From Flavobacteriales bacterium (GTDB lineage: Bacteria; Bacteroidota; Bacteroidia; Palsa-965), in the NCBI GenBank assembly GCA_040377305.1, contig JBEIPA010000036.1, positions 1 through 45,230 of the forward strand: 45,230 nt of DNA, given 5' to 3'. The position numbers and the translations under genes were made by a program. Below the pieces are notes generated by a model that was given only the letters and a program-made list of their open reading frames with translations, did not search any database and had not been told where the DNA came from. Shown in pieces: positions 8,165-42,991 of this stretch. Numbering within the stretch: the stretch's first letter is position 1; every line of letters starts with the position of its first letter.

Positions 8165-9223
8165 GTGTCAGAAATGGAATACGAGCGCCACTTCTACGCG
8201 ATTTCCTCTACTTTTAGCAAAATGTCAGATCAATCGCCGGATTCCAATACGAAAAACGGGCAAAAAAGTTCCTCGTTTTTAGGGCGAATTTTCAAGCTCG
8301 TTTTCACCGGTTTTCTTTGTTGGCTCATTGTACGCACCTTCTTCATTCAGGGCATGTACATTCCTTCGACTTCCATGAGCAATACGCTCAATCCAGGCGA
8401 TATGGTTTACGTGAACAAAGTCGCTTTTGGTCCGCGCATTCCAATGACTCCGTTGACCATTCCATTCACCAACAAATACCTCGACTGGATTTTGCTTCCG
8501 TACATGCGCATTCCCGGTTATGACGAAGTGCGACTCAATGATATCATCGTGTTCAACATTCCCACAGACACGGCTCTGCCAGTTGACTGTCGTGAATTTT
8601 TTGTGAAGCGCTGTGTTGGACTTCCCGGCGATAACTTCTCGATTGTTTCCGGTGTGGTGAACATCAATGGTCAAGCTCTTACGATTCCTTCACTCGCAAT
8701 CTCCATGTATTCGGTTGCGTTGAAGCAGGAAGAAAATCCCGATTCACTTTTCGGCAAGCTCGGCATCAGCGGTAGTTATTCAAGTTCCGACCGAATTCAC
8801 TACACCCTTTTCATGACCTGGATACAGGCAGAAAAACTCGATTCAACAGGTAAAACATTTTCTATCGTTCCCAGTGTACTCGATGCCGATCGTTACGATT
8901 CAAAAATGTTTCCGCAAAACACGTCGAAACAGTACCGGTGGAACTCCGACAATTTTGGTCCGTTGAAAATTCCGAAAGCCGGAGAAACGATTGAGTTGTC
9001 GCTGCAGAATATTCACTTGTACAAAACGGTCATTGCTGTTCACGAAGGCAACACATTTGAAAACCGCCACGATTCCATTTACATCAACGGTGCGTTCGCG
9101 ACTTCATACACGTTTCAAATGAATTATTATTTCGTGATGGGTGACAATCGCTACGATTCGAATGACTCGAGATTCTGGGGATTTGTTCCGGAAGATCATT
9201 TGGTGGGGAGAGTGATAGAATAG
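8165..9223 (+). CDS. lepB: Signal peptidase I (start may be ATG 8222)
   Basis: TM helix, catalytic Ser box YIPSTSM, Lys box VKRCVGLPGD, and GDNRYDSNDSRFWG. Confidence 0.93.
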   Translation: MSEMEYERHFYAISSTFSKMSDQSPDSNTKNGQKSSSFLGRIFKLVFTGFLCWLIVRTFFIQGMYIPSTSMSNTLNPGDMVYVNKVAFGPRIPMTPLTIPFTNKYLDWILLPYMRIPGYDEVRLNDIIVFNIPTDTALPVDCREFFVKRCVGLPGDNFSIVSGVVNINGQALTIPSLAISMYSVALKQEENPDSLFGKLGISGSYSSSDRIHYTLFMTWIQAEKLDSTGKTFSIVPSVLDADRYDSKMFPQNTSKQYRWNSDNFGPLKIPKAGETIELSLQNIHLYKTVIAVHEGNTFENRHDSIYINGAFATSYTFQMNYYFVMGDNRYDSNDSRFWGFVPEDHLVGRVIE

Positions 9224-9370
9224 TGGTTGTCTGCGACGCTCTACACGGCGCCACGGAGAAACGGCAACGTAATTAGTAGTTCCAAACCCGTGCGATACGG
9301 CGCGATCGCGAAAGCGATCATCAATGATGCTTGTGGTGGAAGATCAATTGGTGGGGAGAGTGATAGAATA
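9190..9370 (+). repeat. 33-bp direct repeat duplicating the 3' end of lepB
   Basis: GGAAGATCA(T/A)TTGGTGGGGAGAGTGATAGAATA at 9190-9222 and 9338-9370, one mismatch. Confidence 0.85.
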
Positions 9371-9603: not shown

Positions 9604-10989
9604 ATGAAAGACTTTTCTCAACATGCCGTAAATGGCTCAGCTGAAAATATTGATCACTTACTGAATTCGCTGCACCCGGTAACACAATCGGCCGGTGAAC
9701 CCTTGCTTAATGCTTCCGGGCTCGGTCTGCGGATTGATTTCAGGTGGTTAAGAGACAACATTTCCGCATTGCGAGATCAGTTGGAGCTAACGCCACTACC
9801 CGTGCATGCGATTGCGGAGTCCGGCGCTTATTCCGATTTTATTATACAGCACAGTCTCAACGACGAAGAGCGAATACTGCTGCTTCTGTCGATTGCCCAG
9901 TATCTCGATCCGTCGGTGACACAACAATTGGTTTCAGAGAACAATTCATTTCGTCTTACACAATGTAACAAAACAGGTGTTGTGCTTGCGACGGGTGAAA
10001 CATTTCTGAAACTTATTGCGGGTATCAATACGGAAGCACGTATCAAGGCACATCGCTATTTCAGCACCGATCATTTGTTCTATCGGAAAAGCATTTTAGA
10101 TTTTGGTGAAGTAAACGAAGCCGTTCCCTCCTACTATGGTGTTCTGAAAATCACTCCCTCATTCCGCGAATTGTTTCTGTATGACCGTCACAGCAAACCA
10201 CGATTCGGGAGTGAATTTCCTGCGCACCTGTTGAAAACACATTTGAACTGGGAAGACCTTGTGATTAATCCGAACACCGAAGATCGCCTGTCGGAAATCC
10301 GAAACTATCTCGATCACAATCAAACACTCCGCAACGAATGGGGATTGCAGAAGCACATGAAAGATGGTTATCGCTGTATGTTTTATGGTCCGAGCGGAAC
10401 AGGAAAAACATTGGCAGCAACATTGCTTGGAAAACACATCGGACGCGAAGTTTATCGTGTAGATATCAGCAGTGTGATCAGCAAATACATTGGTGAAACT
10501 TCGAAGAATCTCAATTCTCTTTTCGCCACAGCAGAAGACAAAGGATGGATTCTTTTTTTCGATGAAGGCGATGCACTTTTCGGAAAGCGGGTGGATACAG
10601 CCACGGCGGATGACAAGAACGTACACTTCGCCAATCAGGACATTGCGTATTTGCTGCAGCGCATTGAAAACTACAACGGGTTGGTAATTGTAGCGAGCAA
10701 CTTCCGGAAAAATATGGACGATGCATTCTCGCGGAGATTCCAGAGTGTGGTGTTGTTTGATGTGCTCAATTATGAGTTGAGTAAAAAATACTGGATGAAT
10801 AATTTACCGGCGCAGGTGAAATTATCTTCTGCGATTGATCTGGATGTGATCGTGAAGCGTCATGCATTGCCGCCTGCATCCATCATGAATGTGATTAACA
10901 GAGTTTGTTTGCGTGCGATCAGTAAGCAGCAACTGGAGATTTCATTGGCGGAGTTGGAGGTTTGTATAAAGGATGAGATGTATAAGTAA
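9604..10989 (+). CDS. AAA+ ATPase resembling Afp15/Pvc15 (eCIS-associated) ATPases
   Basis: Walker A GPSGTGKT, RVDISSVISKYIGETSKNL, Walker B ILFFDEGDALFGKR, ANQDIAYLLQRIE, DDAFSRRF. N-terminal TGETFL motif as in Bacteroidota homologues. Confidence 0.85.
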   Translation: MKDFSQHAVNGSAENIDHLLNSLHPVTQSAGEPLLNASGLGLRIDFRWLRDNISALRDQLELTPLPVHAIAESGAYSDFIIQHSLNDEERILLLLSIAQYLDPSVTQQLVSENNSFRLTQCNKTGVVLATGETFLKLIAGINTEARIKAHRYFSTDHLFYRKSILDFGEVNEAVPSYYGVLKITPSFRELFLYDRHSKPRFGSEFPAHLLKTHLNWEDLVINPNTEDRLSEIRNYLDHNQTLRNEWGLQKHMKDGYRCMFYGPSGTGKTLAATLLGKHIGREVYRVDISSVISKYIGETSKNLNSLFATAEDKGWILFFDEGDALFGKRVDTATADDKNVHFANQDIAYLLQRIENYNGLVIVASNFRKNMDDAFSRRFQSVVLFDVLNYELSKKYWMNNLPAQVKLSSAIDLDVIVKRHALPPASIMNVINRVCLRAISKQQLEISLAELEVCIKDEMYK

Positions 10990-11000
10990 CACACAACATC

Positions 11001-14000
11001 GTGCCCAAGTTATACGCAGAACGCATTAAGAGAAGATTCGATATTCCTGAGGAAGCAGGGAAGATGCGTTTGCGCGTAGATGGAGAAAATCCTTTATTCA
11101 AACCACTCCTTACTTTCATGCCGTTCAAAATGATCATCAAACCTCTGTTTGGTGAGCAAAATGAAACTCCAAAAGCTCAACAGGTCGAGGGTATTTTCTC
11201 ATTTGTCGGTGATGAACCAGCATTTATGATGCTCGCGCAAGAGATTCCCGGTGAGTTTGTTCAGGATACTCCGACACCCGATTATGATATTGAATCAGAA
11301 GCTGCTTACGAAGTGGTTGCCATTGATACAGATCACAACCAGTTGGTGGAAACGGTTTCTTCAATGGAAAGTTTCACCTACGAGGAAAAAGCGGAGACGT
11401 TTACCACTCAGGATCAGAAATCGCGATGGGAGAAAATGAAGCTGAAGGATGTACTCGCTGAACTGGGCGCTGAGTATGATATCAAACATATTCGCGAAGA
11501 ATTCAAGATTGCAAATCCAACTGCAGGCGATAAGCTGGACAACTGGATTAAACGTTCGATCATCGATTATGGATGGAGACTTGGCGATAAACCACCTGAT
11601 ATTACACAAACGAGTGTAACGCGTACCGTTGGAGACACTCCAATTATTGAAGCCGCTGATCTGAACGTAGCGTTTGACATTGCGGTTAAGGAAGAACATG
11701 GAATCGAGCTCAAGGAGTTTGAGTCGTTCTATTGGAAAGACAAAGTCAGCGATAAAACCAGTCTACAAACTATTTATTATGGATCTAAAGAAGCGCAGTA
11801 CAATAAGAAGCATGTAGATCAAACACAACGTCTTGCTTTGATAGAAGATTTATATCTCGCATCAGGTGATATCACATTATACAACAACGCCCTCAAAGAG
11901 AAAAATACCGGAGAGGCTTTTGTGGTCCTTGTAAAATCTGCACAAGAAGTTCTGTTCTATGACCAGCCTACAGAAGTTGATGGCATGTTAGGGGATCAAA
12001 CTTCTGAAGCTCTCGCCAAATGGAAAGTAAAGTGCACAGGATTCGGATTTGATGCATACATAGAGCGCATAGCACGAAGGTTCGCTGTAACAAGGCAGAC
12101 GAATGATGCCACGCGACAAAAATACGAGGATGATAAAAAGTCATCTATAGAAAAGAAACCAAAGCAGGACAATCTTAAACCAAACAGTGCAGATGAACAG
12201 AGGTTTGAATTTTACGCCCTGCAGATTCAGGATAAACGGTTTGCCATTTACCTGAAAGATGAAACCATTGTTGACGATTTGTTGATGGAGCATCCGCCGA
12301 CTGCAAAGGACAAACACGTGGCGGATCAAAAGTTCACAAACACAGTTCAGGGTCCATATGGTATTTCCAATACCGTTAGTTTTCAGTTAGACGATACTCA
12401 ACTAGTATTGCAGGCATATGACCGGCTTCAGAGTGAAAAACAGTCGAAAGCAAATCAAAATCTTCTTGGTGACCAGATAGAAAGTAAATCCCCTTTCACG
12501 CGGCAAACGGATCTGGATGTTGAACAATTCGGGTACATACAACAACTTCTGATTCTGCCGGGATCTCTAGATTCTAAGGAATCGCTGCAGCAGGAATTCG
12601 TTCCAATCAAGAACGGGGCATTATTTAAAACGTGGCTGGAAGCGCACTATGCATTCCAGGCAAAGTTGCAGATTGGCGCACACGATATGGGTATTGACGG
12701 TGAAAATCCTGCTCCCGAATTACTGCCGACAATCAGACCACTTGAGGACGCGCTGATAACCGCATTATCCCTCTACAATACAAAGATGGGATGGCCACAG
12801 GATGAAGGATTTGGCTATTGGCGCTTTGAAGGTGATGAATACTTTACTTACGACGATGCGATTCTTGTAATTAACAAAGCCGGCGCGCATATTCTGCTGT
12901 TACTGCAAGACGCACTTTCCGGAAGTAGCAATCCCGACCTGCGTGAACAACAGTTGCTCACGGATTTCGCATCACGTGAAACTCAACATTTGAGACGTGA
13001 CAATCTTCTCTCTACAGCCACAGGAGAAGTAGATCGTGTAAGAGCCATCTTCCAGACCCTGGAATTCAAGCAGGAGAGCGACAAGTATAATCCCTCTCTA
13101 GGTGCTGCTGCTCCAACCGGCTTTCCTATGCAGATTTACATTGAGAAGAAGGAGGACGGAGATTGTACCCTGCACATTTTGCTTGACGATGCCGAGAAGA
13201 ACCGCGACATACACGTGGATGGGAAAAATATTTTTGACTGTATGCGGAACCTCGCAGCAACTCATACCAAACAATTGCCGGATGGAACAATTTTCTATTA
13301 CGACCCAGCAGATCCGAATATTGAGAATCCGGTGCAATACTCAATTTACGTTGAAGGCAGAATGTCGGCATCGGAAGTTTTCGGTTATGTGGCGCTTGGA
13401 TTGGCTGTGGCGGGTGCGGCTCTGGCTGCTCCATTTACAGGTGGCGGATCGCTGATGGCAGTAAGTCCAGTTGCCGCAGCGTTCATTGGCGCTTCCGTTG
13501 TTGCGGGCATTACGTCCTCTGTTTGTTATTTATACGAACGCGATCAACTTGGACAGCTTACCGGTGAAGACATTGCGCTCGAAGCCGTGAATATAGTTTC
13601 CAGTCTTGCTCCTGGAATATTTGCTTTGAGCAAAGCTGGTTTGTTTACAAAATTCAGCAGCAGGCTTACGACCTTTAATAACGTCACCTCCACTGCACGC
13701 TTCTTTGAATTCACAGTGGCGGTAGATGTTGGCGGCATACTCGTGAACGGTGTTTCCATGACGCAACAGGTAATTGATGCACTCGCGGAAGTTGATGCAA
13801 TGGGCCCTGAAGTTTCCGAAGCAGATAAAGCAGAATTCCGTCACCGCATTCTCATGTCCTCCATCCTTGGCTTCACCTTGCTAGCTGTTTCATTCAAGAG
13901 CAGTATGTCTGATATGTCGAAAATCAAATCCAAACCGAAGTTCGACGATGACGGAATGGAATTCAGGTTGCACATTGAAAACGGGAAGTACTTCAAGAAG

Positions 14001-14951
14001 GATATCAATACAGGCAAGCTTACCGAAATGAATCCGGCGGAAATCAAAAAGTTTGTGCCCAACAATGCAATACTTCCTGAAACAAACGTAGACAACCGAC
14101 AGTTCACCGTTCACACCGATGGTAAAGGAAACTACGTGAAGCGGTTTGAAGATACAGGAGAAGAAATTTCGATTAACAAAGCAGAGTTTGAAGCAGAAGG
14201 TGGGATTGAACCGGGGAGGTATGAGTACTCGAGTTATGTTGAGGAAGGGGAAACGAAATATAGGAAGAAGGATCTTGATACAAATCAAACATCAGAAATC
14301 GATAAGGTTGAGTTTGAGAATGCAAAGACCAAAGTACTCGATCAGAAAGGCGCAATAAAAACAGCTATAAGTAGTCAGGAGATTGATGATTTATTTTCAG
14401 ATCAGCGTCTCAAGGCTGTAAGAGAAGAATATCTGGCCACTGGACTGGCTGAGAAACATCCTAATCTGACCATTGCAGAAGGAACTATTTTATATGACTA
14501 CACAGGCGCCGGATTTGCTGATTTAAACGAAGCCCTGAATGATAAGCTTAAAACTGCCAAGATAACTGAACATTTTGCGACTTATGAAAAGTTGCTGAAT
14601 CAGGCGCTAGATAAATTCGACAACTTTGATGGTGTTGTATTTAGGGGTGGATATGTCCCCCTAGATGATATTCTTAGTAAATATCAAAAAGGTCAAACAG
14701 TAACGCATGCACAATTTACCTCTACCTCAAAATCTAAAACAGTCGCAGATAATTTTAGAGTCTATAACGATGGCAACGTATTTTTTGAAATCACAAGTAA
14801 AAACGGTAAATTTATTCAAAGCATTTCCGCGAAACCCGATGAAATCGAAGTATTATTCAAGTCGCAAGGTAAATTTGAAGTCCTTAGCAATGAGCTGAAG
14901 GTTGATGATTTTGGACATCAGTATTATGAAATTAAAATGATTCAACTGTGA
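11001..14951 (+). CDS. Large polymorphic-toxin-like protein with C-terminal R-S-E ADP-ribosyltransferase domain
   Basis: C-terminal YDYTG..LNEAL, VFRG (Arg 14643), FTSTS (14715-14729), DEIEVLF (ExE 14841-14849). Gly/Ala-rich hydrophobic block at ~13380-13900. PG-binding-like motif at ~11890-12025. Confidence 0.8.
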   Translation: MPKLYAERIKRRFDIPEEAGKMRLRVDGENPLFKPLLTFMPFKMIIKPLFGEQNETPKAQQVEGIFSFVGDEPAFMMLAQEIPGEFVQDTPTPDYDIESEAAYEVVAIDTDHNQLVETVSSMESFTYEEKAETFTTQDQKSRWEKMKLKDVLAELGAEYDIKHIREEFKIANPTAGDKLDNWIKRSIIDYGWRLGDKPPDITQTSVTRTVGDTPIIEAADLNVAFDIAVKEEHGIELKEFESFYWKDKVSDKTSLQTIYYGSKEAQYNKKHVDQTQRLALIEDLYLASGDITLYNNALKEKNTGEAFVVLVKSAQEVLFYDQPTEVDGMLGDQTSEALAKWKVKCTGFGFDAYIERIARRFAVTRQTNDATRQKYEDDKKSSIEKKPKQDNLKPNSADEQRFEFYALQIQDKRFAIYLKDETIVDDLLMEHPPTAKDKHVADQKFTNTVQGPYGISNTVSFQLDDTQLVLQAYDRLQSEKQSKANQNLLGDQIESKSPFTRQTDLDVEQFGYIQQLLILPGSLDSKESLQQEFVPIKNGALFKTWLEAHYAFQAKLQIGAHDMGIDGENPAPELLPTIRPLEDALITALSLYNTKMGWPQDEGFGYWRFEGDEYFTYDDAILVINKAGAHILLLLQDALSGSSNPDLREQQLLTDFASRETQHLRRDNLLSTATGEVDRVRAIFQTLEFKQESDKYNPSLGAAAPTGFPMQIYIEKKEDGDCTLHILLDDAEKNRDIHVDGKNIFDCMRNLAATHTKQLPDGTIFYYDPADPNIENPVQYSIYVEGRMSASEVFGYVALGLAVAGAALAAPFTGGGSLMAVSPVAAAFIGASVVAGITSSVCYLYERDQLGQLTGEDIALEAVNIVSSLAPGIFALSKAGLFTKFSSRLTTFNNVTSTARFFEFTVAVDVGGILVNGVSMTQQVIDALAEVDAMGPEVSEADKAEFRHRILMSSILGFTLLAVSFKSSMSDMSKIKSKPKFDDDGMEFRLHIENGKYFKKDINTGKLTEMNPAEIKKFVPNNAILPETNVDNRQFTVHTDGKGNYVKRFEDTGEEISINKAEFEAEGGIEPGRYEYSSYVEEGETKYRKKDLDTNQTSEIDKVEFENAKTKVLDQKGAIKTAISSQEIDDLFSDQRLKAVREEYLATGLAEKHPNLTIAEGTILYDYTGAGFADLNEALNDKLKTAKITEHFATYEKLLNQALDKFDNFDGVVFRGGYVPLDDILSKYQKGQTVTHAQFTSTSKSKTVADNFRVYNDGNVFFEITSKNGKFIQSISAKPDEIEVLFKSQGKFEVLSNELKVDDFGHQYYEIKMIQL

Positions 14952-15358
14952 AAACCTTTGCTGAAATAACCGCTTATTCTCATCTAAAAAAGAAGAAACT
15001 TCTCGATGAGTTAGCTATTTGCATAGCACAAATTGAACTTGAATCGGAAGCGGAGGTTAATTCCCACCAAAATCGAGATGTTGTTTTGTTGTTACTAAAG
15101 ACAGCATTGACAGGGCTCAAGACAATTGAATGTGATGATAAGAAAATACAAATAGTAACCGAACTTTCTGATTTAATTGAAGCTCGTGAACAATTGCTCA
15201 AATTGTCAGATAGAGAACAACTAATAAGACTGATGAATGAAATATCGCTTTTGAAAGGAGTTATGGAAAACTTGAATTGGGACTGCTTAACTGAGACCGA
15301 GCGATTAGCGAAATACAATGCAATGATTTCCATGGGCAGGAAGTGGAAACATTTATAA
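14948..15358 (+). CDS. Candidate immunity protein for the ART toxin
   Basis: GTGA start/stop overlap with the toxin. Small, AT-rich, predicted helical. Confidence 0.6.
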   Translation: MKTFAEITAYSHLKKKKLLDELAICIAQIELESEAEVNSHQNRDVVLLLLKTALTGLKTIECDDKKIQIVTELSDLIEAREQLLKLSDREQLIRLMNEISLLKGVMENLNWDCLTETERLAKYNAMISMGRKWKHL

Positions 15359-15570
15359 ATACCAGAAAGTGCGAGTGCTTGTGCGATAGCAAGAGTTGCT
15401 AGTGCGCGTGAGCAACAACGCGAAGTGTTGGTGAGGTTGCAATCGTTGTTAAGGGTTGTGTGCATGCTTGAGCGGAGTTACCCTTGACAACACCATAGAA
15501 ATGGTATGAAGTTGCGAAATAAAAATTGGACGTGTCAATAGATTTCGCTGGAAACTTTTCCGGCGTTTTT

Positions 15571-15630
15571 TTTGCAAGGGTGTCACCCTTCGAGGTCCGC
15601 CGCGGCGGATAACCTTCGAAGGGTTTGCTT
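15571..15630. repeat. Palindromic CCTTCGAAGG-type element with 12-bp insert
   Basis: TTTGCAAGGGTGTCACCCTTCGAGGT[CCGCCGCGGCGG]ATAACCTTCGAAGGGTTTGCTT. Related copies at 17733-17781 and 18383-18414. Confidence 0.75.
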
Positions 15631-15650
15631 CCAAAGAGCAGCTAAAGGAA

Positions 15651-17060
15651 ATGGACGGACTACTGGAGAAATACCAGAACCGAAAGAGCAACTCGTGGAC
15701 ACTGAAAGATGCAGAGGGCATCGAATTAACTACCGAAGAAATTGCGAATAAGCGGTCGGAACTACAGTCAAGTATCAAGCAACTCGAAAGTGCAGAGTTC
15801 ATTCACAAAACAGGCATAAGCAAAGTTGTTGGTGCGGAGTCAACGATGCTGTATAAGGGCGATAAAGCCTCTGCAGATCTGATCAAGAAGAAACACAAAG
15901 ATCAGGGAGACACAGTAACTGGTCCGGACAAGAATGGAATTATAACCGTAACTACAAAAGATGGTACTATTACTTACTTACCAGAAGGTGGAGAAGCGAG
16001 CGTTGTGAAAAGCTTTGCGTCTGAACTAATGACCAATACAGCATTGAGCGGGCATATTCGTCTTTCAAACTCAAACGTAATGGCAGTTGATCTGGCTAAG
16101 TTGCCTGAGGTTGAAAAATTATTCAGTGGTAAAGGAGACAAATGGGTTAAGATCGGCGACAATCTCTACATGGGCGAAACAACCCGTAACGGAAAGCCCG
16201 TGAAGATGTTCTTTATTCCTGAAGAATCTCTGAACGTCGCGAATGATGCACTCAAAGCAGAACAGAATAATCCGGGAACCGGACTTTCAGTGATCAACGC
16301 TAATCTGCGCGGGGATGCAGCAAAAGAAGGCTTTGCGGATTTTATGGAGCGCGACTGGAAAGGTATGACCGAAGGACAAATGGTGCTGGAAGCATGGAAG
16401 CTGGAGCAAAAAGGCAAGAGCGATGGCAAGAGCCTAAACGAGATTTTCGAAGAACGTAAAAAGGAAAAAGTAACCCGGGAGAAGTTGGAAAAACAAAAAG
16501 CAGAACAGGAGCTGCTGAAGAACAGAGGCAAGTTGATTGGGGCGACCGGTGATAGTTATCCGGAGAAAGAAATGCTTGCGCAATATAAAGATGAGGAGAA
16601 AGGAGCATATTTTGATACACCGACTGGCGACCCCCTTTTCGTTAAGTATTTTAAATCAGACGCAGAAAGAGCTCCATTCGAAGTATTTGTTGGCGAAAAA
16701 GATGGATTAGTCTATGATGCCGAAGGAAATCTTTTGGACACTCAGAATTCAGATACTAAAAAAAGGTCATCACTCGTCGTTCCCGCAGACGCTATATTTG
16801 TAATGGATACGAAGGGTAGAATTTTCCTGAGCAAGCATTCAGCCTATGGCGAATTCCATCACTCGACTTTTTTAGGTGGTGATCCTGTTGGGATGGCAGG
16901 CGAAGCAAATATTGTAAAAGGTGGATCGGAATATAGTAAGTTTAACAACAATAGCGGACACTATAGTTGCGATAATAGTTATTTGGATAATATTAGAATT
17001 GAGCTGGAAAAACGCGGAGCAAAAATGGACAATCTTGGTTTTGAACCCTTTAAAAAATAG
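15651..17060 (+). CDS. Orphan toxin (probably N-terminally truncated) with C-terminal IQM-like HHS...AG...SGHY domain
   Basis: VKYF...ERAPFEV...GLVY..GNLLDT...IFVMD...FHHSTFLGGDPVGMAGE...NNSGHY. The frame stays open upstream of the ATG into the palindromic element. A small gene follows 4 bp later. Confidence 0.7.
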   Translation: MDGLLEKYQNRKSNSWTLKDAEGIELTTEEIANKRSELQSSIKQLESAEFIHKTGISKVVGAESTMLYKGDKASADLIKKKHKDQGDTVTGPDKNGIITVTTKDGTITYLPEGGEASVVKSFASELMTNTALSGHIRLSNSNVMAVDLAKLPEVEKLFSGKGDKWVKIGDNLYMGETTRNGKPVKMFFIPEESLNVANDALKAEQNNPGTGLSVINANLRGDAAKEGFADFMERDWKGMTEGQMVLEAWKLEQKGKSDGKSLNEIFEERKKEKVTREKLEKQKAEQELLKNRGKLIGATGDSYPEKEMLAQYKDEEKGAYFDTPTGDPLFVKYFKSDAERAPFEVFVGEKDGLVYDAEGNLLDTQNSDTKKRSSLVVPADAIFVMDTKGRIFLSKHSAYGEFHHSTFLGGDPVGMAGEANIVKGGSEYSKFNNNSGHYSCDNSYLDNIRIELEKRGAKMDNLGFEPFKK

Positions 17061-17064
17061 ACCT

Positions 17065-17388
17065 ATGGAGCAACAAGTTCCGGTTGAAGTAAAAGAAAAC
17101 TTCGGTTACGTGACTAGCATTCTTCACTATATGGACGATGCAGAGCTTGAGCCCGAATATACCCGCGAGATGATGGACAAACATCCAAGATATGGACTCG
17201 GATTTAATATTAACGTAAGGAAAAAAGCGTGGGCCGCACTCCAATGGATAGTCGATCACCCGGAAATTGACTACATCCAATTGGATAGTTGGAACATCAG
17301 AGATAGTCAAGTGTATTTTCAAAGGATGAAAAAACTCCATGAGCTGATGCGAACGTTTAAATTTTACGAGGACAGGAATCACGAGTAA
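17065..17388 (+). CDS. Candidate immunity protein (107 aa) for the IQM-like toxin
   Basis: ATG 4 bp after the toxin stop. A diverged paralogue immediately downstream supports that it is coding. Confidence 0.7.
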   Translation: MEQQVPVEVKENFGYVTSILHYMDDAELEPEYTREMMDKHPRYGLGFNINVRKKAWAALQWIVDHPEIDYIQLDSWNIRDSQVYFQRMKKLHELMRTFKFYEDRNHE

Positions 17389-17398
17389 TTGGCGCGCA

Positions 17399-17556
17399 AT
17401 GAGTCAGAATATTCCGGATTTCGTCAGAGAAAATTTTGGATCAATAACTATGATCCTTCACTGAACTGGATATGGAATATGTTCGATCATTATTGGAGAA
17501 ATATCCAAAATATGGTTTAGGCATAAACATCAGCACTATCGTGAATTGGATAGCTG
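17399..17556 (+). pseudogene. Frameshifted, truncated paralogue of the 17065-17388 immunity gene
   Basis: MSQNIPDFVRENFGSITMILH* aligns to MEQQVPVEVKENFGYVTSILH. In another frame, ELDMEYVRSLLEKYPKYGLGINI aligns to ELEPEYTREMMDKHPRYGLGFNI. Confidence 0.8.
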
Positions 17557-17571
17557 GAGCGTCAAGGATAA

Positions 17572-17781
17572 CTCGTGAATGATGATCATATATTTTTCAA
17601 AACCGTGTGACTTCAGTCCGCGGTTTGGGTATGAAATTACGAACGACAAATGCGTTATGTCAAGTTGATTTTCATTCTCGAATAAATTATCAACGTCTCT
17701 TACGTTTCCTCTAATTTTCTGAACGAATCAACTTTGCAAGGGTGCCACCCCTCGAGGGTTTAACCTTTGAAGGGTTTGCTT
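17572..17781 (+). repeat. ~210-bp intergenic direct repeat, copy 1
   Basis: Begins CTCGTGAATGATGATCATATATTTTTC..CCGTGTGACTTCA.TCCGCGGTTT. Aligns to 18194-18414. Confidence 0.85.
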
Positions 17782-17861
17782 TTCATACCGAAATTTTTCG
17801 ACTCAGAACAATGGACTTTCAATAGAAATTAAGGATTAATTTTATTGTCAAACATCAAACC

Positions 17862-18125
17862 ATGGAACTTGAAGAATTTATCAGGACAATTAAGACGAAA
17901 GAGGACTTCGCCTATTTTGTTGAATTGCTAAAAAAAGATTATAATAAAAATAAAGATGACATAAATCAGTGGGAAAACATCACACTGGAACAATTCCTAA
18001 ATGGTTTATCAAATTACACACACTCATTAAAAGAAAAAGATACTGACGGACGTCCACTTAAGGCACATGAACCGTCGTGGAGCCTTTTTGCTGATTTACT
18101 CATGGGTGCTACAGTGTACGAGTGA
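17862..18125 (+). CDS. Orphan immunity-like protein (WEN.TL..FL...PSW..FA...YE family, DUF7660-like)
   Basis: WENITLEQFL and PSWSLFADLLMGATVYE motifs of a small family commonly found in polymorphic toxin loci. Confidence 0.7.
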   Translation: MELEEFIRTIKTKEDFAYFVELLKKDYNKNKDDINQWENITLEQFLNGLSNYTHSLKEKDTDGRPLKAHEPSWSLFADLLMGATVYE

Positions 18126-18193
18126 ATGGAACGACAAGAGTTCAAATACAATTGTCTTAGCAAAATACTTTCGCGCGCTTTGCGACTTCGTGG

Positions 18194-18414
18194 CTCGTGA
18201 ATGATGATCATATATTTTTCGAAAGCCGTGTGACTTCAATCCGCGGTTTTGGTCCGCCGCGGCGGAGAAGCTACAAACGACAACTACGATTTGTCAAGTT
18301 GTTTTTTTCTTTCGTGTTGATTTTCATTCTGAAATAAATGCTCAACGACTTCTACCCTTCCGATATTTTTGAATGAGCCTGTTTTGCAGAGCTTCGAACC
18401 TTCGAAGTGTTTGC
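18194..18414 (+). repeat. ~220-bp intergenic direct repeat, copy 2
   Basis: Aligns to 17572-17781. Carries an extra CCGCCGCGGCGG at 18254-18265. Confidence 0.85.
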
Positions 18415-18470
18415 GTTTGTGATCAGCACATCAATTTTCACTAACTTTCATCTGGCAAATAAATTCCGGC

Positions 18471-20454: not shown

Positions 20455-22203
20455 ATGAAAAAAACTACCAGCACACTTCTGAAAGTGTCTGTCGTTGCGG
20501 TTGCAGCCGTAGCGATCGGATTCTGGGATTCAGAGGGCACAAAGGTGGAAGCGTCGAGTCACAGGGAGGCACCGTTAATTGCTAACGATCCTCTTGCAGA
20601 CAACACGGACCTTTATGCTTTCCGCAGTCCTGATGACACCAACACGGTGACAATCATTGCGAATTATGTTCCGCTTCAGCTACCGCAAGGCGGACCAAAC
20701 TATGCTTCGTTCGGAGAAAACATCCGTTACGAAATTCACGTTGAGAACGACGGAACAGCAGGTGATGATATCACTTACCGTTTCACATTCTCGAAAGTAA
20801 ACCAGGATCCCACAACTTTCTTCAACATCCGACTCGGTCAGCAAAACCTGATGACGTCGTATATCTGTGAGAAAAGTGTGAATGCTGGTCCGTTCACAAC
20901 AATTGTTTCGAATGGTGTTGTTCCTCCTCCGAACATCGGACCGCGCTCAATCAGCGATCCTACAGTTGGTCTTGGAGCTGCAAACTACGATGCACTTATG
21001 TCGGCAGCAATTGCTCCTGCAACAGGTGGTGGCAACGAAACAGTTTACTGCGGACCATCTGATGATCCGTTCTTCGTTGATCTCGGCGGAATTTTTGATC
21101 TCGGTCAAACACGCGCTGGATTAGGCGCGAAAGATGGTGTATCGAACAAAAACGTACACAGCATCGCTATCAAAGTTCCGATTTCTACTTTGCAGAAAAA
21201 CGGACTGCCTGTAACCTCAGCTGTCAACATTCTCGACAGTGATTACATCATCGGCGTTTGGGCTTCTGCAAGTCGCCCTGCAACACGCACATTGAGCGCA
21301 ACCGGTGGAAATCCAAGCGACACAGGTGGATGGATACAAGTATCACGTATCGGTATGCCATTGACGAACGAAGCAGTAATTGCTATCGGCGACAAAGACG
21401 AGTGGAATTCACGCACGCCTTACGCGGAAGATCCTGCAATGGAAGAGTATTTCTGTAATCCTGAACTTGGACTTTACATGGATGCTTCTTTGTTCGGAAA
21501 CGCAGTACCGGCATTGGCTGCACTTCGTATTCAGCGTAACTCTTTGCAATCATTCGATTTCGGAAACGGCAATGATGGTCTCTGGCCAATCCGTGCTACG
21601 AACGGTGGAGCAGGAACGGCACTTGATACCATGTTGTTTGGTAATTACCTGCTTCGTCAGGGCAAACCACGTTCAGTAGATCTTCTTCCGATTTTCCACA
21701 CAGGAGTTCCAAACCTTGCACCATATCATCTGGCAACAGGGAAAAACGGAAATCCATTGGCGAACGGAAAACCATTCATCAACAACTTCCTTCCAACATT
21801 CGGAGATATGCTTCGTTTGAACATGGCTGTACCTGTTACACCACGTAACCACCCATTGTTCTCGTCTGAAGGACTTATCCAGGCATGCGTACTTGGTCTT
21901 ACTGATCCAACGTACAATTCATCTGCAGCTTTGCAGTGGATTCCTAACATGGATGGATTCCCGAATGGTCGTCGATTAGAAGATGATGTTACACGCATCG
22001 AGCTTCAGGCTGTATCTGGTGTTGCACTTGCAGCAATCGGACTGTGGTATGATGACTACACTTCAGGAAATCCTGTAACACAAGATCTTCTTGATGTACT
22101 CACGTACACAACGGGTGTTGAAGCGAACGATACTACGTTCCGCACAGGATTCCCTTATGTTCAAGCTCCATGGAGTGGTTACGCAAACCATAGTGGTCAG
22201 TAA
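20455..22203 (+). CDS. DUF4331 family protein (no T9SS CTD)
   Basis: ASSHREAP..DNTDLYAF, DDPFFVDL, RIGMPLTNE and GFPNGRRLEDDV motifs. Signal peptide. Confidence 0.88.
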   Translation: MKKTTSTLLKVSVVAVAAVAIGFWDSEGTKVEASSHREAPLIANDPLADNTDLYAFRSPDDTNTVTIIANYVPLQLPQGGPNYASFGENIRYEIHVENDGTAGDDITYRFTFSKVNQDPTTFFNIRLGQQNLMTSYICEKSVNAGPFTTIVSNGVVPPPNIGPRSISDPTVGLGAANYDALMSAAIAPATGGGNETVYCGPSDDPFFVDLGGIFDLGQTRAGLGAKDGVSNKNVHSIAIKVPISTLQKNGLPVTSAVNILDSDYIIGVWASASRPATRTLSATGGNPSDTGGWIQVSRIGMPLTNEAVIAIGDKDEWNSRTPYAEDPAMEEYFCNPELGLYMDASLFGNAVPALAALRIQRNSLQSFDFGNGNDGLWPIRATNGGAGTALDTMLFGNYLLRQGKPRSVDLLPIFHTGVPNLAPYHLATGKNGNPLANGKPFINNFLPTFGDMLRLNMAVPVTPRNHPLFSSEGLIQACVLGLTDPTYNSSAALQWIPNMDGFPNGRRLEDDVTRIELQAVSGVALAAIGLWYDDYTSGNPVTQDLLDVLTYTTGVEANDTTFRTGFPYVQAPWSGYANHSGQ

Positions 22204-22211
22204 CGTTTAAT

Positions 22212-22258
22212 ATGTCGGGTCAGGGACCGCGACATCACGCGGGTCAGAGACCACGACA
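22212..22258. repeat. Two degenerate copies of a short palindromic unit (GGGTCAG.GACC.CGACA)
   Basis: ATGTCGGGTCAGGGACCGCGACAT hairpin followed by GCGGGTCAGAGACCACGACA, between the paralogues. Confidence 0.5.
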
Positions 22259-22275
22259 CAAAAAAAGAACCTAAA

Positions 22276-24348
22276 ATGAAAAAGATAACAACACGTTCAC
22301 TTCTCAGTCTGGGTGCCATTGCAGCAACTGCATTTGCATTCAGCACGTGGGATGCTGACCAGACTCCTGTTGAGGCGTCGAGTCACAGGGAAGCGCCGTT
22401 GATTGCCAACGATCCGTTGAGCGACAACACCGACCTGTATGCATTCCGCAGTCCCGATGATACAAACACGGTGACAATCATTGCAAACTACATTCCGCTT
22501 CAGCTTCCGCAAGGAGGACCGAACTACGCTTCATTCGGAGAAAACATCCGTTATGAAATTCACGTAGAGAACGACGGAACTGCAGGAGACGATCTTACCT
22601 ATCGTTTCACATTCACTAAAGCGAATCAGGATCCAACAACATTCTTCAACATTCGTCTCGGGCAGGAAAACCTGAAGACATCTTACACGTGTGAGAAGAG
22701 TGTGAATGGTGGTCCGTTCGCAACTGTCGTATTAAATGGAATTGTTCCTCCTCCAAACATCGGACCTCGCTCTATCAGCGATCCTACTGTTGGTCTTGGT
22801 GCAGCAAACTATGATGCGTTGATGACAGCTGCAATTGTTCCTGCAACAGGTGGCGGTGGAGAAACGGTTTACTGCGGACCTGCAGATGATCCGTTCTTCG
22901 TTGACCTTGGCGGTATTTTCGATCTCGGTCAGACACGCGCAGGCGGAACAGGTGTTAACGCACCTGAAGATGGAGTTGCATGTAAAAATGTGCACACCAT
23001 CGCTCTGAAAATTCCAATTGCAACATTGCAGAAAAACGGACAACCCGTAACGAACGCAGTAAACATTCTGGACAGCGATTACATCATCGGTGTTTGGGCT
23101 TCTGCAAGCCGTCAACAGGTTCGTACGCTTAACGGAAACGGAACTGAAACATACAGCGGAAACTGGATTCAGGTTTCCCGTGTAGGAATGCCGTTGACTA
23201 ACGAAGCAGTAATTCCTATCGGTGCTAAAGACGAATGGAATTCACTTACGCCATACACCGAAAATCCTGCAATGGAAGATTACTACTGTAATCCGGAACT
23301 TGGTCTTTACATGGATGCTTCTTTGTTCGGAAACGCAGTACCTGCACTTTCTGCACTTCGCATTCAGCGTAACTCATTGCAGTCTTTCGATTTCGGTAAC
23401 ACACACGATGGTCTCTGGCCTATCCGCGCTACAAATGGTGGTGCAGGAACAGCGCTTGATACTAACTTGTTTGGTAACTATCTGCTTCGTCAGGGCAAGC
23501 CACGTTCAGTAGATCTTCTTCCGATTTTCCACACCGGAGTTCCAAACCTTGCACCATATCATTTGGCTACAGGTAAAAACGGAAACCCATTGGCGAACGG
23601 AAAACCATTCATCAACAACTTCCTTCCAACATTCGGAGACATGCTTCGTTTGAACATGGCGGTACCAGTTACTCCACGTAACCACCCATTGTTCTCTTCA
23701 GAAGGATTAATCCAGGCGGCGGTACTTGGTCTTACAGATCCAGCATACAATGCTAGCGCAAACCTTCAGTGGATTCCGAATATGGATGGCTTCCCGAACG
23801 GACGTCGTTTAGAGGATGATGTAACACGTATCGAGCTTCAGGCTGTATCAGGTGTAGTACTTGCTGCAATCGGATTGTGGTATGATGATTACACTTCAGG
23901 AAATCCTGTAACACAAGATCTTCTTGACGTACTCACGTACACCACAGGAATCGAAGCGAACGACACTACACTGAAAACTGCGTTCCCTTATGTTCAGGCT
24001 CCTTGGGAAGGATTTGGTCGCTGCGGCGGATCTGATATCATCACTTCTACTCCATCTTATGGAATGGGCGTTGGTGCTCCATCAATGATCATGATGCAGA
24101 ACTATCCGAACCCGGCTAACACTTCCACTACATTCAAGTACAACATTGCTGCAGCGTCACGTGTGTCGCTCGACATCTACAATGTATCAGGACAAAAAGT
24201 TGCGACGTTGATGAACAACGAAACAAAATATCCTGGCGTGTATGAGCTTGTTTGGAATTGTGAAGCGATGGCAACCGGATCTTATGTTGCTGTAATGAGC
24301 TCCGATGGAGTTGCGATGCAGAGCATGAAAGTTTCTGTGTCACACTAA
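22276..24348 (+). CDS. DUF4331 family protein with type A T9SS C-terminal domain
   Basis: Same DUF4331 motifs, plus C-terminal QNYPNPAN...IYNVSGQKV...GSY. Confidence 0.88.
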   Translation: MKKITTRSLLSLGAIAATAFAFSTWDADQTPVEASSHREAPLIANDPLSDNTDLYAFRSPDDTNTVTIIANYIPLQLPQGGPNYASFGENIRYEIHVENDGTAGDDLTYRFTFTKANQDPTTFFNIRLGQENLKTSYTCEKSVNGGPFATVVLNGIVPPPNIGPRSISDPTVGLGAANYDALMTAAIVPATGGGGETVYCGPADDPFFVDLGGIFDLGQTRAGGTGVNAPEDGVACKNVHTIALKIPIATLQKNGQPVTNAVNILDSDYIIGVWASASRQQVRTLNGNGTETYSGNWIQVSRVGMPLTNEAVIPIGAKDEWNSLTPYTENPAMEDYYCNPELGLYMDASLFGNAVPALSALRIQRNSLQSFDFGNTHDGLWPIRATNGGAGTALDTNLFGNYLLRQGKPRSVDLLPIFHTGVPNLAPYHLATGKNGNPLANGKPFINNFLPTFGDMLRLNMAVPVTPRNHPLFSSEGLIQAAVLGLTDPAYNASANLQWIPNMDGFPNGRRLEDDVTRIELQAVSGVVLAAIGLWYDDYTSGNPVTQDLLDVLTYTTGIEANDTTLKTAFPYVQAPWEGFGRCGGSDIITSTPSYGMGVGAPSMIMMQNYPNPANTSTTFKYNIAAASRVSLDIYNVSGQKVATLMNNETKYPGVYELVWNCEAMATGSYVAVMSSDGVAMQSMKVSVSH

Positions 24349-24357
24349 CATTATTGC

Positions 24358-24394
24358 AAGAACGATGCTGCAGAAAAAGCAGCATCGTTCTTTT
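24358..24394 (+). terminator. Intrinsic terminator-like hairpin
   Basis: 14-bp perfect stem AAGAACGATGCTGC/GCAGCATCGTTCTT with a short T tract, 9 bp after the stop codon. Confidence 0.75.
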
Positions 24395-24445
24395 ACTACT
24401 CCACTCGCGTACAGGTATGATTAGCCGATATGCAAATATGCCGAT

Positions 24446-25804
24446 GTGCCAATCAAAAAATTCATGAACAAACGCAAAGTCATTTACGGAACATTCATTG
24501 CAATAGTCGCAGGACTTTTTGTGATGATACTTGCATTCGCAAAAGACCCGCAAGAGGAAGTGGCGAGTCAACCTGCAGAACATCGCGGCACGTATGCGAT
24601 GTCGGCGCAATGGCTGAACACATCAGCAGCAATTGAAGGATTGAAAGCGAGTCTGGCGGAAAATCCGGAAGATGTGAAAGCTATGGTGCAATTGTCACAA
24701 GCCTACATTCAGGAAGGACGTAACACCGGAGATCACGCGTATTACGATAAAGCAACACTTGAGCTTACGAGCAAAATTCTTGCATTAGAGCCAAACAATT
24801 TTGAAGCATTATGCTGCGAAGGAACTGTGCTTCTTTCTCAACATCATTTTTCAGAAGCGCTCATGAGTGCACAGAAAGCACATGAGGTAAATCCATCCAG
24901 TGCGTTTGTTTACGGCATGATGGTAGATGCCTATGTCGAACTAGGCAACTACGAAAAAGCTGTGGAGACTTGCGATCAGATGATTGCAATGCGCCCTGAT
25001 TTGAGTTCGTACGCACGCGTTTCTTACCTGCGTGAAATCTACGGAGACATTCCCGGTTCCATTTCAGCAATGAAAATGGCCGTAGGTGCAGGATACGGTG
25101 GACTCGAACAAACCGAATGGTGTCGCGTTCAACTCGGAAAACTGTACGAGCAGATCGGCGCAACGGATAGTGCAAAGTATTGCTACGAACTGGCACTTTA
25201 CAACAGAACCGATTACGCTTTCGCTTTGGCCGGAATGGCGCGTATTGAAAAAGCCATTGGAAATTATCCCGGCGCAATTGCATACCTCAATAAAGCCAAT
25301 GAACAGATTACCGAATATTCGTTCTATGAAGACCTGAGCGATGTGTATCGTCTAAGCGGAAACACAGCACTTGCCGATTCTTCTCTTCAGACGGCAATCG
25401 CCATGTTGGGTCCGGGCGCGATAAGCGATGAGAAAGTAGTTGGTCACGGCCATTATGCCGACCGCGAACTGGCATTGGTGTACGCGAAAACAGGAAACTA
25501 CACGAAAGCCATTGAGCACGCGATCAACGAATACAAACGTCGCCCGGAAAACATCGACATCCAGGAAACACTCGCATGGGTTTACTACAAAGCAGGTTAC
25601 CATTCTCTGGCAGAATACCACATGCGAAAAGCCATGCGCACCGGAAAGAAAAATCCGGAAACACTTATGCATGCCGGACTGATCAAAATCAAAATCGGTC
25701 AGCAATGGATGGGACGCAAACTCATTGCCGATGCACAAGTGATGAAAGCATTTATGGATTCAGATCTTCAATCGGAAGCTTCTGTTTATCTTTCCATGAA
25801 ATAA
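24446..25804 (+). CDS. Tetratricopeptide repeat protein, N-terminally anchored or exported (start may be ATG 24464)
   Basis: N-terminal hydrophobic helix, TPR-like helical repeats (ELGNYEKAV, RPDLSSYARVSYLRE). Confidence 0.85.
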   Translation: MPIKKFMNKRKVIYGTFIAIVAGLFVMILAFAKDPQEEVASQPAEHRGTYAMSAQWLNTSAAIEGLKASLAENPEDVKAMVQLSQAYIQEGRNTGDHAYYDKATLELTSKILALEPNNFEALCCEGTVLLSQHHFSEALMSAQKAHEVNPSSAFVYGMMVDAYVELGNYEKAVETCDQMIAMRPDLSSYARVSYLREIYGDIPGSISAMKMAVGAGYGGLEQTEWCRVQLGKLYEQIGATDSAKYCYELALYNRTDYAFALAGMARIEKAIGNYPGAIAYLNKANEQITEYSFYEDLSDVYRLSGNTALADSSLQTAIAMLGPGAISDEKVVGHGHYADRELALVYAKTGNYTKAIEHAINEYKRRPENIDIQETLAWVYYKAGYHSLAEYHMRKAMRTGKKNPETLMHAGLIKIKIGQQWMGRKLIADAQVMKAFMDSDLQSEASVYLSMK

Positions 25805-25810
25805 ATTTCC

Positions 25811-26488
25811 GTGTTACTCAATAAAAGTTCAGATCTCGCTCGTCGCGTAGTTTTTACAACTGCACTTCTTTCCATCGCGGGTTTAACTTTTGCACATACC
25901 GGTGACGAACTCGCAGGACTTCCCCGCTCCACCATCGCTTCACTGTATCTCGAACTTGGATTCAAGCACATCATTCCGCTTGGACTCGACCATATTCTGT
26001 TCGTCGTTTGTCTTTACCTGCTTAATCCAAATCTCAAATCGGTAATCTGGCAGGCAACTGCATTTACCGTTGCGCATTCCATCACGCTTGGCTTAGCTAT
26101 GTACGGTTTAATTTCCCCGCCGTCTTCCCTGGTCGAACCGATGATCGCACTTTCCATTTTCTACGTGGCTGTTGAAAATATTTTAACCGAAAAGCTAAAA
26201 CCAACGCGTCTCATTGTGGTGTTCATTTTTGGTTTGCTCCACGGAATGGGCTTCGCTAGTGTGCTAACCGAATTGGGTTTACCTCCGAACGAATATGTTA
26301 CCGGACTGATCTGCTTCAATGTGGGCGTAGAGCTCGGACAAATTGCTGTAATCCTGGCATGTTGGGCAGCATTCGGGGCGTGGTTTGGTAAAAAATCGTG
26401 GTACAAAAAGCGAATTGTTATTCCGGTGTCGGTTTTAATCGGAATTGTGGCCTTGTACTGGACTATTGAGCGTACTTTTTTCGGTTAG
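25811..26488 (+). CDS. HupE/UreJ family membrane protein
   Basis: GLDHILF, AFTVAHSITL, FGLLHGMGFA, FNVGVELGQ. Multiple TM helices. Confidence 0.88.
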   Translation: MLLNKSSDLARRVVFTTALLSIAGLTFAHTGDELAGLPRSTIASLYLELGFKHIIPLGLDHILFVVCLYLLNPNLKSVIWQATAFTVAHSITLGLAMYGLISPPSSLVEPMIALSIFYVAVENILTEKLKPTRLIVVFIFGLLHGMGFASVLTELGLPPNEYVTGLICFNVGVELGQIAVILACWAAFGAWFGKKSWYKKRIVIPVSVLIGIVALYWTIERTFFG

Positions 26489-30515: not shown

Positions 30516-31004
30516 TTACTTCAGAATGACCAGGCGCTTCGAATCAATCCGCAGCGCAACAGAATCTGCCCACATCTTTTCCACTTGAATTCCGTGGACC
30601 ACATCATTCTGCTTCACAAAGTGCGTCTCCCCGTTCACCCTTAGGAACCCTACGGTCTTATTCGACGTTGTCTCCTTCACTAAACCGTAATACTGAATAG
30701 TTGGTGGTACTATTGTAGGTGGTGGTTCCTTGACCTGATCAGCTTTCTTAGCCGCATCCGGGTAATGTTTTGATGCGACCGAAGAATTATTCGCAACCGG
30801 TAAATCCAAAAATGGATCCCGGTAGTTGATATTCAATTGATACTTTTCCGGGACTTTTGAAGTATCGAAACTTGCAGTCTGAGGTAATTCACTGCTGAAC
30901 CCAGCTTTTTCCGAATTCATCGACGCATAAACCTTCCACCCAATCATTCCCCATATCCCGAGTACAACCGGTAACAAGATCCAGGAAAGCTTTTTGTTTT
31001 TCAT
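30516..31004 (-). CDS. T2SS/T4P-cluster single-pass membrane protein (PilP/GspC-like position)
   Basis: N-terminal TM, RDPF motif, beta-rich C-terminus. Last gene of the secretin operon. Confidence 0.6.
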   Translation of the reverse strand: MKNKKLSWILLPVVLGIWGMIGWKVYASMNSEKAGFSSELPQTASFDTSKVPEKYQLNINYRDPFLDLPVANNSSVASKHYPDAAKKADQVKEPPPTIVPPTIQYYGLVKETTSNKTVGFLRVNGETHFVKQNDVVHGIQVEKMWADSVALRIDSKRLVILK

Positions 31005-31951
31005 CAGTTTACATCAAAACGATATACTGCACTGTAGTTACTTAGGTTTCCTGCTGCATCAACACTACGTACTCGCCAGAAATAAACAGTTGAGGCAAGG
31101 GCACCGGTCCAGTTGTAACCACCTTGCGCAGCACCTAAAGCTAGTTCCAGCACACTGGCTGTTGTAAAAGTGGAGTCCGTTGAAATAAACAAACTGTCTA
31201 TTTGCGAATCACTGCCACTCGTCCAATCGAAGGCTAGAGTTGAAGGGACGGTTGCATAGAAAGAATTGTCCACAGGAGTGACTAATGCAGGTGCAACAGG
31301 AGCCGTTTGATCAACAATGAACGTTCGTGAACTCCATTGCGTAAACGAACTGGAATTTTCTCCGCGCACACGTAATTCATAATTGCCCTGCGACAACGTG
31401 TACTGATAACTATTAGTGGTTAATGTTGTAGCAACCACCGTTGCGGTGGTCGCGGTGTTTACAATCTCTACGCGGTAGTAGCTCGCGGCACTCAGTGAAT
31501 TCCATGTAAATGCTACAGAACTGTTGGATGTGGCAAAGCCGTTTGACATCGGAGATGTGATCACAATGGTTTGATTCGCAAGACTAACGCTACTATCGAC
31601 CGTTAATCTTCTGGTTAACCATTCGCCTTCAGATGAACCATTCTCAGGACGTAATCTCCAATAGTACGTGTTGCCAGGAGACAAATCAGGATAAAACCGG
31701 TCACCGTCAATGAGTGTATCGTACACTAATTGTTGAGGTGAAGAAAAATCGGGATAAACAATCTGAAGTCTATAGCCTCTCGCGCCCTCAATTTCATTCC
31801 ACCAGAAAAGCGGTGATGCTACTTGGACGGTATCATCGTCCGAAGGAGCAATAACGGAAACAAGTATCCCCGTCAGATCATCCTCAATGAAATCATGTTC
31901 ACACGAATTTAGAATCAGCAGTGCGAAAATAAATAAAGGCAATTTTCTCAT
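31004..31951 (-). CDS. Lipoprotein with three Fn3/Ig-like domains
   Basis: Lipobox LNS-C. Repeated YYWRLRP / YELRVRG / YFWRVRS motifs. Confidence 0.8.
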   Translation of the reverse strand: MRKLPLFIFALLILNSCEHDFIEDDLTGILVSVIAPSDDDTVQVASPLFWWNEIEGARGYRLQIVYPDFSSPQQLVYDTLIDGDRFYPDLSPGNTYYWRLRPENGSSEGEWLTRRLTVDSSVSLANQTIVITSPMSNGFATSNSSVAFTWNSLSAASYYRVEIVNTATTATVVATTLTTNSYQYTLSQGNYELRVRGENSSSFTQWSSRTFIVDQTAPVAPALVTPVDNSFYATVPSTLAFDWTSGSDSQIDSLFISTDSTFTTASVLELALGAAQGGYNWTGALASTVYFWRVRSVDAAGNLSNYSAVYRFDVN

Positions 31952-33677: not shown

Positions 33678-33680
33678 ACC

Positions 33681-35597: not shown

Positions 35598-35601
35598 AAA
35601 T

Positions 35602-37041: not shown

Positions 37042-37050
37042 AACATGCAA

Positions 37051-37964: not shown

Positions 37965-38000
37965 AGTAGATCCAATTAAAGTCAGTTTGAAGTAACATCA

Positions 38001-38035
38001 AACAAAAACGCAGGTCAATGGTGAATTGACCTGCG
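38001..38035 (-). terminator. Intrinsic terminator between the LytTR gene and the pilin gene
   Basis: 11-bp stem CGCAGGTCAAT/ATTGACCTGCG followed by TTTTTGTT on the minus strand. Confidence 0.7.
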
Positions 38036-38057
38036 CGTATAAAGTTTTAACCAACGA

Positions 38058-38411: not shown

Positions 38412-38455
38412 AGGTTTTTTAATTTGTGTTTTACTTCATTTCACTTTTCGAGGGC

Positions 38456-42902: not shown

Positions 42903-42991
42903 TTTTAAGCCTTCACCCACAATGGAATCATCGTTTTTTTTGCCTTCTCAAGCGAAATGTAGTTACGAATTTGCTTCACTACCTTTGTACC

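Follow-up and report, generated by a model that had tools for sequence, protein, structure and literature searches.

A satellite Afp15-type ATPase and its predicted ADP-ribosylating cargo, probably serving a contractile injection system whose genes lie on other contigs of a Flavobacteriales genome

Among the described contractile injection systems (CIS), the closest to the locus reported here is AlgoCIS of Algoriphagus machipongonensis, likewise a Bacteroidota system, in which the two-domain AAA+ ATPase Alg15 occurs with Cgo1 and Cgo2 (PMC8894135; 10.64898/2026.05.27.728243). Alg15 and its Walker B glutamate are reported to be required to fill the AlgoCIS tube, and the large cargo, with its variable C-terminus, has an N-terminal region that acts as the loading signal and an optional, dispensable DUF4157; the authors of this 2026 preprint hypothesise that the loading sequence is specific for its AAA+ protein (10.64898/2026.05.27.728243). 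In the Photorhabdus virulence cassette (PVC), loading is reported to require Pvc15 (PMC9054023), and Pvc15 and Afp15, the latter of the antifeeding prophage (Afp), are likewise described as loading via an N-terminal signal; a 2024 paper asks whether the key to the cargo is the signal, the ATPase or both (PMC11495950). Toxin-immunity pairs and DUF4157 cargo at extracellular CIS (eCIS) loci (PMC8213781, PMC11297309, PMC8894135, PMC12210884), cargo genes away from the CIS cluster (PMC11566945) and split CIS loci (PMC6899500) were already described, and the accessible part of a preprint on ixotrophy lists DUF4157 candidates only. In Halogeometricum borinquense, dispersed DUF4157 toxins, some off-cluster, are likewise followed by immunity genes, with one ATPase in the cluster and no mention of satellite ATPases or leader families in the accessible part of that report (PMC11566945). 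Here, we analysed a window of 45,230 nucleotides, which is the whole contig C1 (JBEIPA010000036.1) of a Flavobacteriales genome (GCA_040377305.1; 5.18 Mb, 99.99% complete), and found a cassette in which an Afp15/Alg15-type ATPase heads a large cargo gene. The genome is called G000, and C1, C3, C5, C10, C13, C15 and C24 are its contigs. Unlike AlgoCIS, which is reported to have a single ATPase within the CIS cluster and a loading sequence not conserved between systems, the related genomes hold up to nine ATPase matches each, many far from structural genes, and each ATPase clade comes with a leader of its own that is under selection, while small genes follow each cargo.

The ATPase gene (9604..10989, forward strand) encodes 461 aa consisting of an N-terminal domain and one AAA domain (Pfam AAA, E 1e-22), in which Walker A, Walker B, the pore loop and the arginine finger are all intact; judging by close homologues, the start may lie 20-45 codons further in. 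In a midpoint-rooted FastTree phylogeny of 148 AAA domains, with unresolved deep forks and without Pvc15 and Alg15, the window ATPase fell inside an in-group of 145 rows (support 90) with Afp15 of pADAP and CIS ATPases that reside in operons, separate from the FtsH/CDC48-like controls, and its AAA domain is 41% identical to that of pADAP Afp15. The original prediction for this locus, which had been made from the sequence of the window, attributed the motifs to the Afp15/Pvc15 group, and both the intact motifs and the position beside Afp15 agree with it. However, Afp15 is 696 aa long and Pvc15 carries AAA domains in tandem (D1-D2), whereas the window ATPase has one AAA domain and lies outside any structural operon. 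Its predicted structure (pLDDT, the predicted local distance difference test, 88) contains one AAA domain and resembles the AAA folds of the proteasome, Cdc48 and FtsH, with no CIS ATPase structure among the matches listed. The best named match (68%) sits in a Bacteroidia metagenome-assembled genome, and a metagenome scan with the N-terminal domain of its clade, called W (eight tree rows, support 99, plus one split copy), matched only two distant loci. We regard the protein as a putative cargo loader.

The cargo gene (11001..14951, forward strand) begins at a GTG codon after a gap of 11 nt and encodes 1316 aa, comprising an N-terminal leader of about 45-47 aa (family W; 11001..11141, forward strand) as a candidate loading signal for clade-W ATPases, a body, hydrophobic segments at residues ~790-876 and a tip with an R-S-E type ADP-ribosyltransferase (ART) domain (14457..14888, forward strand). 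Pfam ART matches residues 1153-1296 above cut-off (E 1.7e-10), and the R (R1215), S-T-S (S1241-T-S1243) and E-x-E (E1281-x-E1283) motifs are all found. The same domain occurs in Tre1 (PDB 6DRE), Vis, ART2, HopU1 and XopAI (E 6e-8 to 1e-4). The E-x-E spacing equals that of Tre1; unlike Tre1, the window protein has no PAAR carrier. The following gene also differs from Tri1, an ADP-ribosylhydrolase, as it gave no Pfam match above cut-off. No type IX secretion system (T9SS) tail, RHS, PAAR, VgrG or DUF4157 match was obtained for the cargo in a Pfam-type domain search, so that the anatomy given by the original prediction, an ATPase 11 bp before a 1316-aa ART-tipped protein with no T9SS C-terminal domain, RHS core or PAAR/VgrG signature, was reproduced by the open reading frames (ORFs) and domain matches. 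The earliest hydrophobic stretch starts at residue 790, with no signal-peptide predictor run. The GC content is 0.45 in the body, 0.37 in the ART tip and 0.36 in the overlapping 136-aa ORF, a fall which is expected if the tip and its partner were acquired together. A protein-database search for full-length homologues of the body matched only itself, and phylum samples of 401 genomes gave one other match for the ART tip and one for the tip of the relic described below. A homologue in genome G021 has residues 464-1111 in common with the window cargo but a different tip, and the cargos in general show the polymorphic-toxin feature of a shared N-terminal part with variable C-terminal toxin domains.

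The structural genes lie elsewhere in the genome. None of the 23 further window ORFs has a CIS domain, in line with the earlier claim that sheath, tube and baseplate genes are missing from the window, and a full eCIS-type gene set is divided between the starts of C24 (sheath and Pvc16 genes) and C5 (sheath end, two tubes, CIS_tube-LysM, VgrG, PAAR, gp25, baseplate J and tape measure), the C24-C5 join being presumed. The C5 part stops at the tape-measure gene with no ATPase behind it, and tube/sheath matches are confined to C5, C15 and C24. G000 has four related ATPases (C1, C24 twice, C10), each heading cargo-like genes; its tubes, by contrast, number one pair plus a lone copy. G011, G055 and G274 likewise combine a single tube pair with 2-4 ATPases. 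In a family sample of 35 genomes, 12 of which are under 90% completeness or over 5% contamination, the ATPase is present in 21 genomes (1-9 matches each) and a tube gene in exactly the same 21. In a class sample of 401 genomes, where at most four ATPase matches were scored per genome, 39 genomes outside the family had a match, six of them two or more. The cultured Persicobacter psychrovividus has four such matches on one plasmid, and at least one of these ATPases heads a cargo-like gene away from structural genes. The proposal of a satellite loader with its cargo that supplies a CIS located elsewhere is thus supported by the CIS genes, the tree and the co-occurrence in 21 of 21 genomes, and we consider it very likely that the window cassette is such a satellite. 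As a side observation, the lone tube gene of G000 (C15:15125-15586) lies among unrelated genes and is of a tube type unlike that of the main locus; G010 also has one.

The neighbourhood survey found the expected conserved cargo N-terminus with variable C-termini, and it was split into clade-linked families: in the genes that directly follow the ATPases, the N-terminal ~45 residues group into sequence families (such as W, X, Y and Z) in agreement with the ATPase tree. A W profile built from seven family sequences was scored on 82 genes directly after ATPases, and ten of them reached 39-87 bits (seven training, three new), with the other 72 at 2.8 bits or less; the three new ones are all the genes after W ATPases of another family (3/3, 39-49 bits), as predicted beforehand. 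The same ten were still ranked first when the G012 and window rows were left out of the profile. In whole-genome scans, where training rows match by construction and the informative results are absences and new matches, the W leader occurs in 6 of 35 genomes, all with a W or near-W ATPase (near-W for G020), and the Z leader in seven, the same seven that hold Z ATPases (the G003 match being new). The X leader occurs in five, namely the four X genomes plus one weak match, and the Y leader in seven. The unpublished genome G012 contributed one W training leader (with the split ATPase), one Z training leader and one Y ATPase, and is counted as one genome within the 21/35, 6/35 and 7/35 totals. Of 82 cassettes, 55 could be assigned to a clade and 27 were left out. 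When each of the 55 leaders was matched to its closest counterpart in another genome, the two belonged to the same clade in 45 of 55 cases. The same comparison gave 36 of 55 with residues 56-205 and 30 of 51 with the body past residue 250; shuffled means were 5-6, and kin inflate all three counts. Within one genome, leaders from different clades show no relationship (median score 18 and maximum 36 over 45 pairs), and some W leader pairs are individually weak (scores 37-45 versus a between-clade 99th percentile of 42). The leaders contain invariant or near-invariant residues, in contrast to PVC and Afp cargo signals, for which no consensus is reported. G000 itself combines three leader families with one complete particle locus.

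Several further observations were made on these cassettes. The idea that W loaders are tied to one special particle type was rejected, since W genomes do not share one tube type; the tube type of the G000 locus occurs in four of the six family W genomes but not in G020, and it was not found in the incomplete G001 and G439. In G008 and G001 (L091:1906-4809, L093:741-3649), ATPases stand in tandem, with a cargo-less sister-clade copy directly upstream of the W ATPase, and one ATPase clade (L120, L122, L154, L204) precedes a conserved gene of ~190-215 aa in place of a large cargo. The two C24 cassettes of G000 (L170:7784-16980, L171) face each other beside the sheath genes; one has a caspase-domain gene before and a calpain-like gene after it, and the other has a Y leader on the second downstream gene.

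Linkage to the ATPase gene accounts for only part of this pattern. First, when the nine core-W cargos were compared pairwise (36 pairs), scores over residues 56-205 were at most 71 in 32 pairs, and 35 pairs were without likeness (score 65 or less) beyond residue 250, and therefore the leader outlasts what comes after it. Second, bodies and tips are exchanged behind leaders. A copy of the window cargo's body (residues 85-1111), interrupted by a stop, is found in G026, where it follows an X leader and an X ATPase that is only 32% identical, and tips behind W leaders include ART, EndoU, AHH, lipase and M23. DUF4157 was found in 17 of the 40 cargo-region proteins chosen. Its copies behind W and Z leaders reach 73% identity, the cargos are intermixed, and neither leader group forms a clade on this module (approximately unbiased test, p 0.007 and 0.0006; 25 of 31 rows usable). 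Third, the W ATPase of G008 is separated by 25 kb and 46 kb from two W-leader cargos and by one contig from a third; their bodies are unlike, small genes follow each and none has an ATPase alongside. Four strong X-leader copies are also without an ATPase within 1.5 kb. Fourth, in seven copies of one W subtype, which does not include that of the window, the proportion of synonymous differences (pS) is 0.73 (saturated) and that of nonsynonymous differences (pN) is 0.21, so that constraint acts on the leader peptide.

On this basis, the cassette is probably a satellite ATPase-plus-cargo module for the CIS on other contigs, with clade-specific leader recognition. The W ATPase would bind the W leader at the cargo N-terminus, unfold the predicted ADP-ribosylating toxin and thread it into the shared tube of the C24/C5 particle. 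By taking up a loader together with its leader, a cell could obtain a further class of cargo, and the class could grow when the leader becomes attached to new bodies. Unfolding and tube loading are proposed here by analogy with Alg15 and Pvc15, and clade-specific recognition is suggested by co-variation only. A broader picture, which we regard as evenly poised, is a modular leader code, in which several orthogonal Afp15-type unfoldases, each with its own tag, would multiplex one particle and act in trans on scattered toxin-immunity cassettes, and loader-leader pairs would move between families and recruit new bodies by recombination behind the tag.

Clade-specific recognition has to be weighed against a number of points. 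ATPase and leader are usually 4-50 nt apart, so linkage accounts for part of the co-variation, in which kin genomes are also not independent, and 10 of the 55 leaders had their nearest match outside their own ATPase clade. No W leader accompanies the near-W ATPase of G024; three Y-leader genes in G001 (a 71%-complete assembly) have no Y ATPase that could be found; in G012, where the Y ATPase lies at a contig end, no Y leader was found; and G020 has a weak X leader with only sister-group ATPases. For 54 of 136 ATPase records there is no qualifying downstream cargo gene. The window leader is the most divergent W member and, when held out, scores 20-21 bits among the 82 leaders and 13 bits among the 4813 ORFs of the genome, level with one unrelated ORF, and the window cargo is without the DUF4157 present in five cargos with the same leader. 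In addition, PVC and Afp signals are reported to show little sequence conservation and to tolerate point mutations (PMC9054023; 10.1101/2023.11.13.566157), which argues that loaders can be permissive. If so, any paralogue would load any disordered N-terminus, extra copies would serve dosage or separate regulation, and the leader would be linked or kept for another partner. PVC loading survived alanine scanning, with signals having rare conserved residues (PMC9054023), and Afp signals are described as alike in chemistry without consensus (10.1101/2023.11.13.566157). Leaders here usually abut the ATPase gene. X and Y leader genomes also have tube types in common, and therefore the partner of the leader could be a particle protein. 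However, the leader is under selection, W cargos without an ATPase beside them are confined to a genome that has a W ATPase, leaders of different clades within one genome are unrelated, and three leader families meet one complete particle locus in G000 while W genomes differ in tube type. We consider permissive loading unlikely.

It is quite improbable that the ATPase is instead a dedicated chaperone, which would stabilise or mask the cargo or dock it on the CIS spike, whether the particle is free or cell-anchored, with no tube threading. Such a role would suit the several hydrophobic segments of the window cargo, and Pvc15 is reported to save payloads from degradation (PMC11495950) and haloarchaeal DUF4157 toxins have been postulated as spike riders (PMC11566945); however, Alg15, of the same phylum and of two-domain build, is reported to fill the tube lumen in an ATP-dependent manner, a 1228-aa cargo included. 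A CIS-independent export or unfolding route, the other option of the original prediction, is highly improbable, since a 45-kb contig without a structural gene and a cargo without DUF4157 would fit it, but the ATPase occurs in none of the 14 tube-less family genomes, in keeping with the ATPase-tube co-occurrence, and DUF4157 is carried by five cargos with the same leader.

Bacterial targets are plausible for the predicted toxins on indirect grounds, as the tips behind W leaders (ART, EndoU, AHH with Imm11, lipase and M23) point to them; the AHH nuclease followed by Imm11 is found in G274, in a relative with the same leader. In the window, a 136-aa ORF (14948..15358, forward strand; GC 0.36) overlaps the cargo stop by 4 nt and has no homologue found. 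After it, a 469-aa ORF (15651..17060, forward strand) has a C-terminal domain in which HHS and N.SGHY motifs are conserved and is followed after 4 nt by a 107-aa ORF (17065..17388, forward strand) with no Pfam match, a broken paralogue of that gene (about 17399..17602, forward strand; tblastn E 1e-8 and 2e-6 in two frames) and an 87-aa DUF7660 protein (17862..18125, forward strand; GC 0.36). Since the 136-aa ORF has no homologue, the 107-aa ORF no Pfam match and the 87-aa protein only DUF7660, the first two are candidate immunity proteins and the third a candidate orphan immunity gene by position; immunity by small downstream genes and toxicity to bacteria would also be in keeping with the relatives. 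The 469-aa ORF carries no leader and corresponds to the C-terminal third (918-1381, 47% identity) of an unrelated cargo-like family of ~1385 aa, and therefore it is probably a truncated relic. Thus, of the toxin-immunity pairs and orphan immunity genes claimed earlier, the small ORFs are placed as described, but the second toxin is probably a leaderless relic. The possibility that this ORF is an exchange tip of the 1316-aa protein was rejected because there is no homology between the two families, and a fold prediction of its tip (pLDDT 38 from four sequences) was not used. The same tip domain ends the ~1385-aa proteins P0003-P0005, whose N-termini look like leaders, and terminates a secreted-looking VHL-beta protein in G811 (L356:1444-2619); its occurrence on unlike proteins indicates a mobile domain.

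The relic starts right after a palindromic repeat resembling repetitive extragenic palindromic (REP) elements (15571..15630), with other copies at 17733-17781 and 18383-18416 and one more adjoining an IS200-like transposase on C3. A genome-wide family of such repeats was ruled out, as they are present only on C1, C3 and C13. An IS200-like transposase at 637-1089 of the window is a possible source of the repeats in the cassette. A 23-nt sequence from the 3' end of a signal peptidase gene is repeated exactly a short way before the cassette (9200-9222 and 9348-9370, 148 bp apart), possibly as an integration scar. Genes near the cassette on C1 carry T9SS tails, and further along the window are tandem DUF4331 genes followed by tetratricopeptide repeat and HupE/UreJ genes (20455-26488) and a cluster resembling type II secretion or type IV pili (30516-43336; secretin, ATPase, prepilin peptidase, pilin and T2SS-F).

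In conclusion, known parts are found here in an organisation for which we found no description, multiple satellite loaders with matched leaders being absent from the accessible literature searched, although locus tables of the survey papers may contain such cassettes; the leader-ATPase pairing and the multiplicity of loaders go beyond the original prediction. How contractile injection systems choose their cargo is an open question on which this locus bears. Several loader clades with distinct selected leaders occur in one cell, and therefore natural matched and mismatched pairs are at hand for a direct test. In addition, leader profiles detect cargo genes far from CIS genes, which operon-based surveys would miss.

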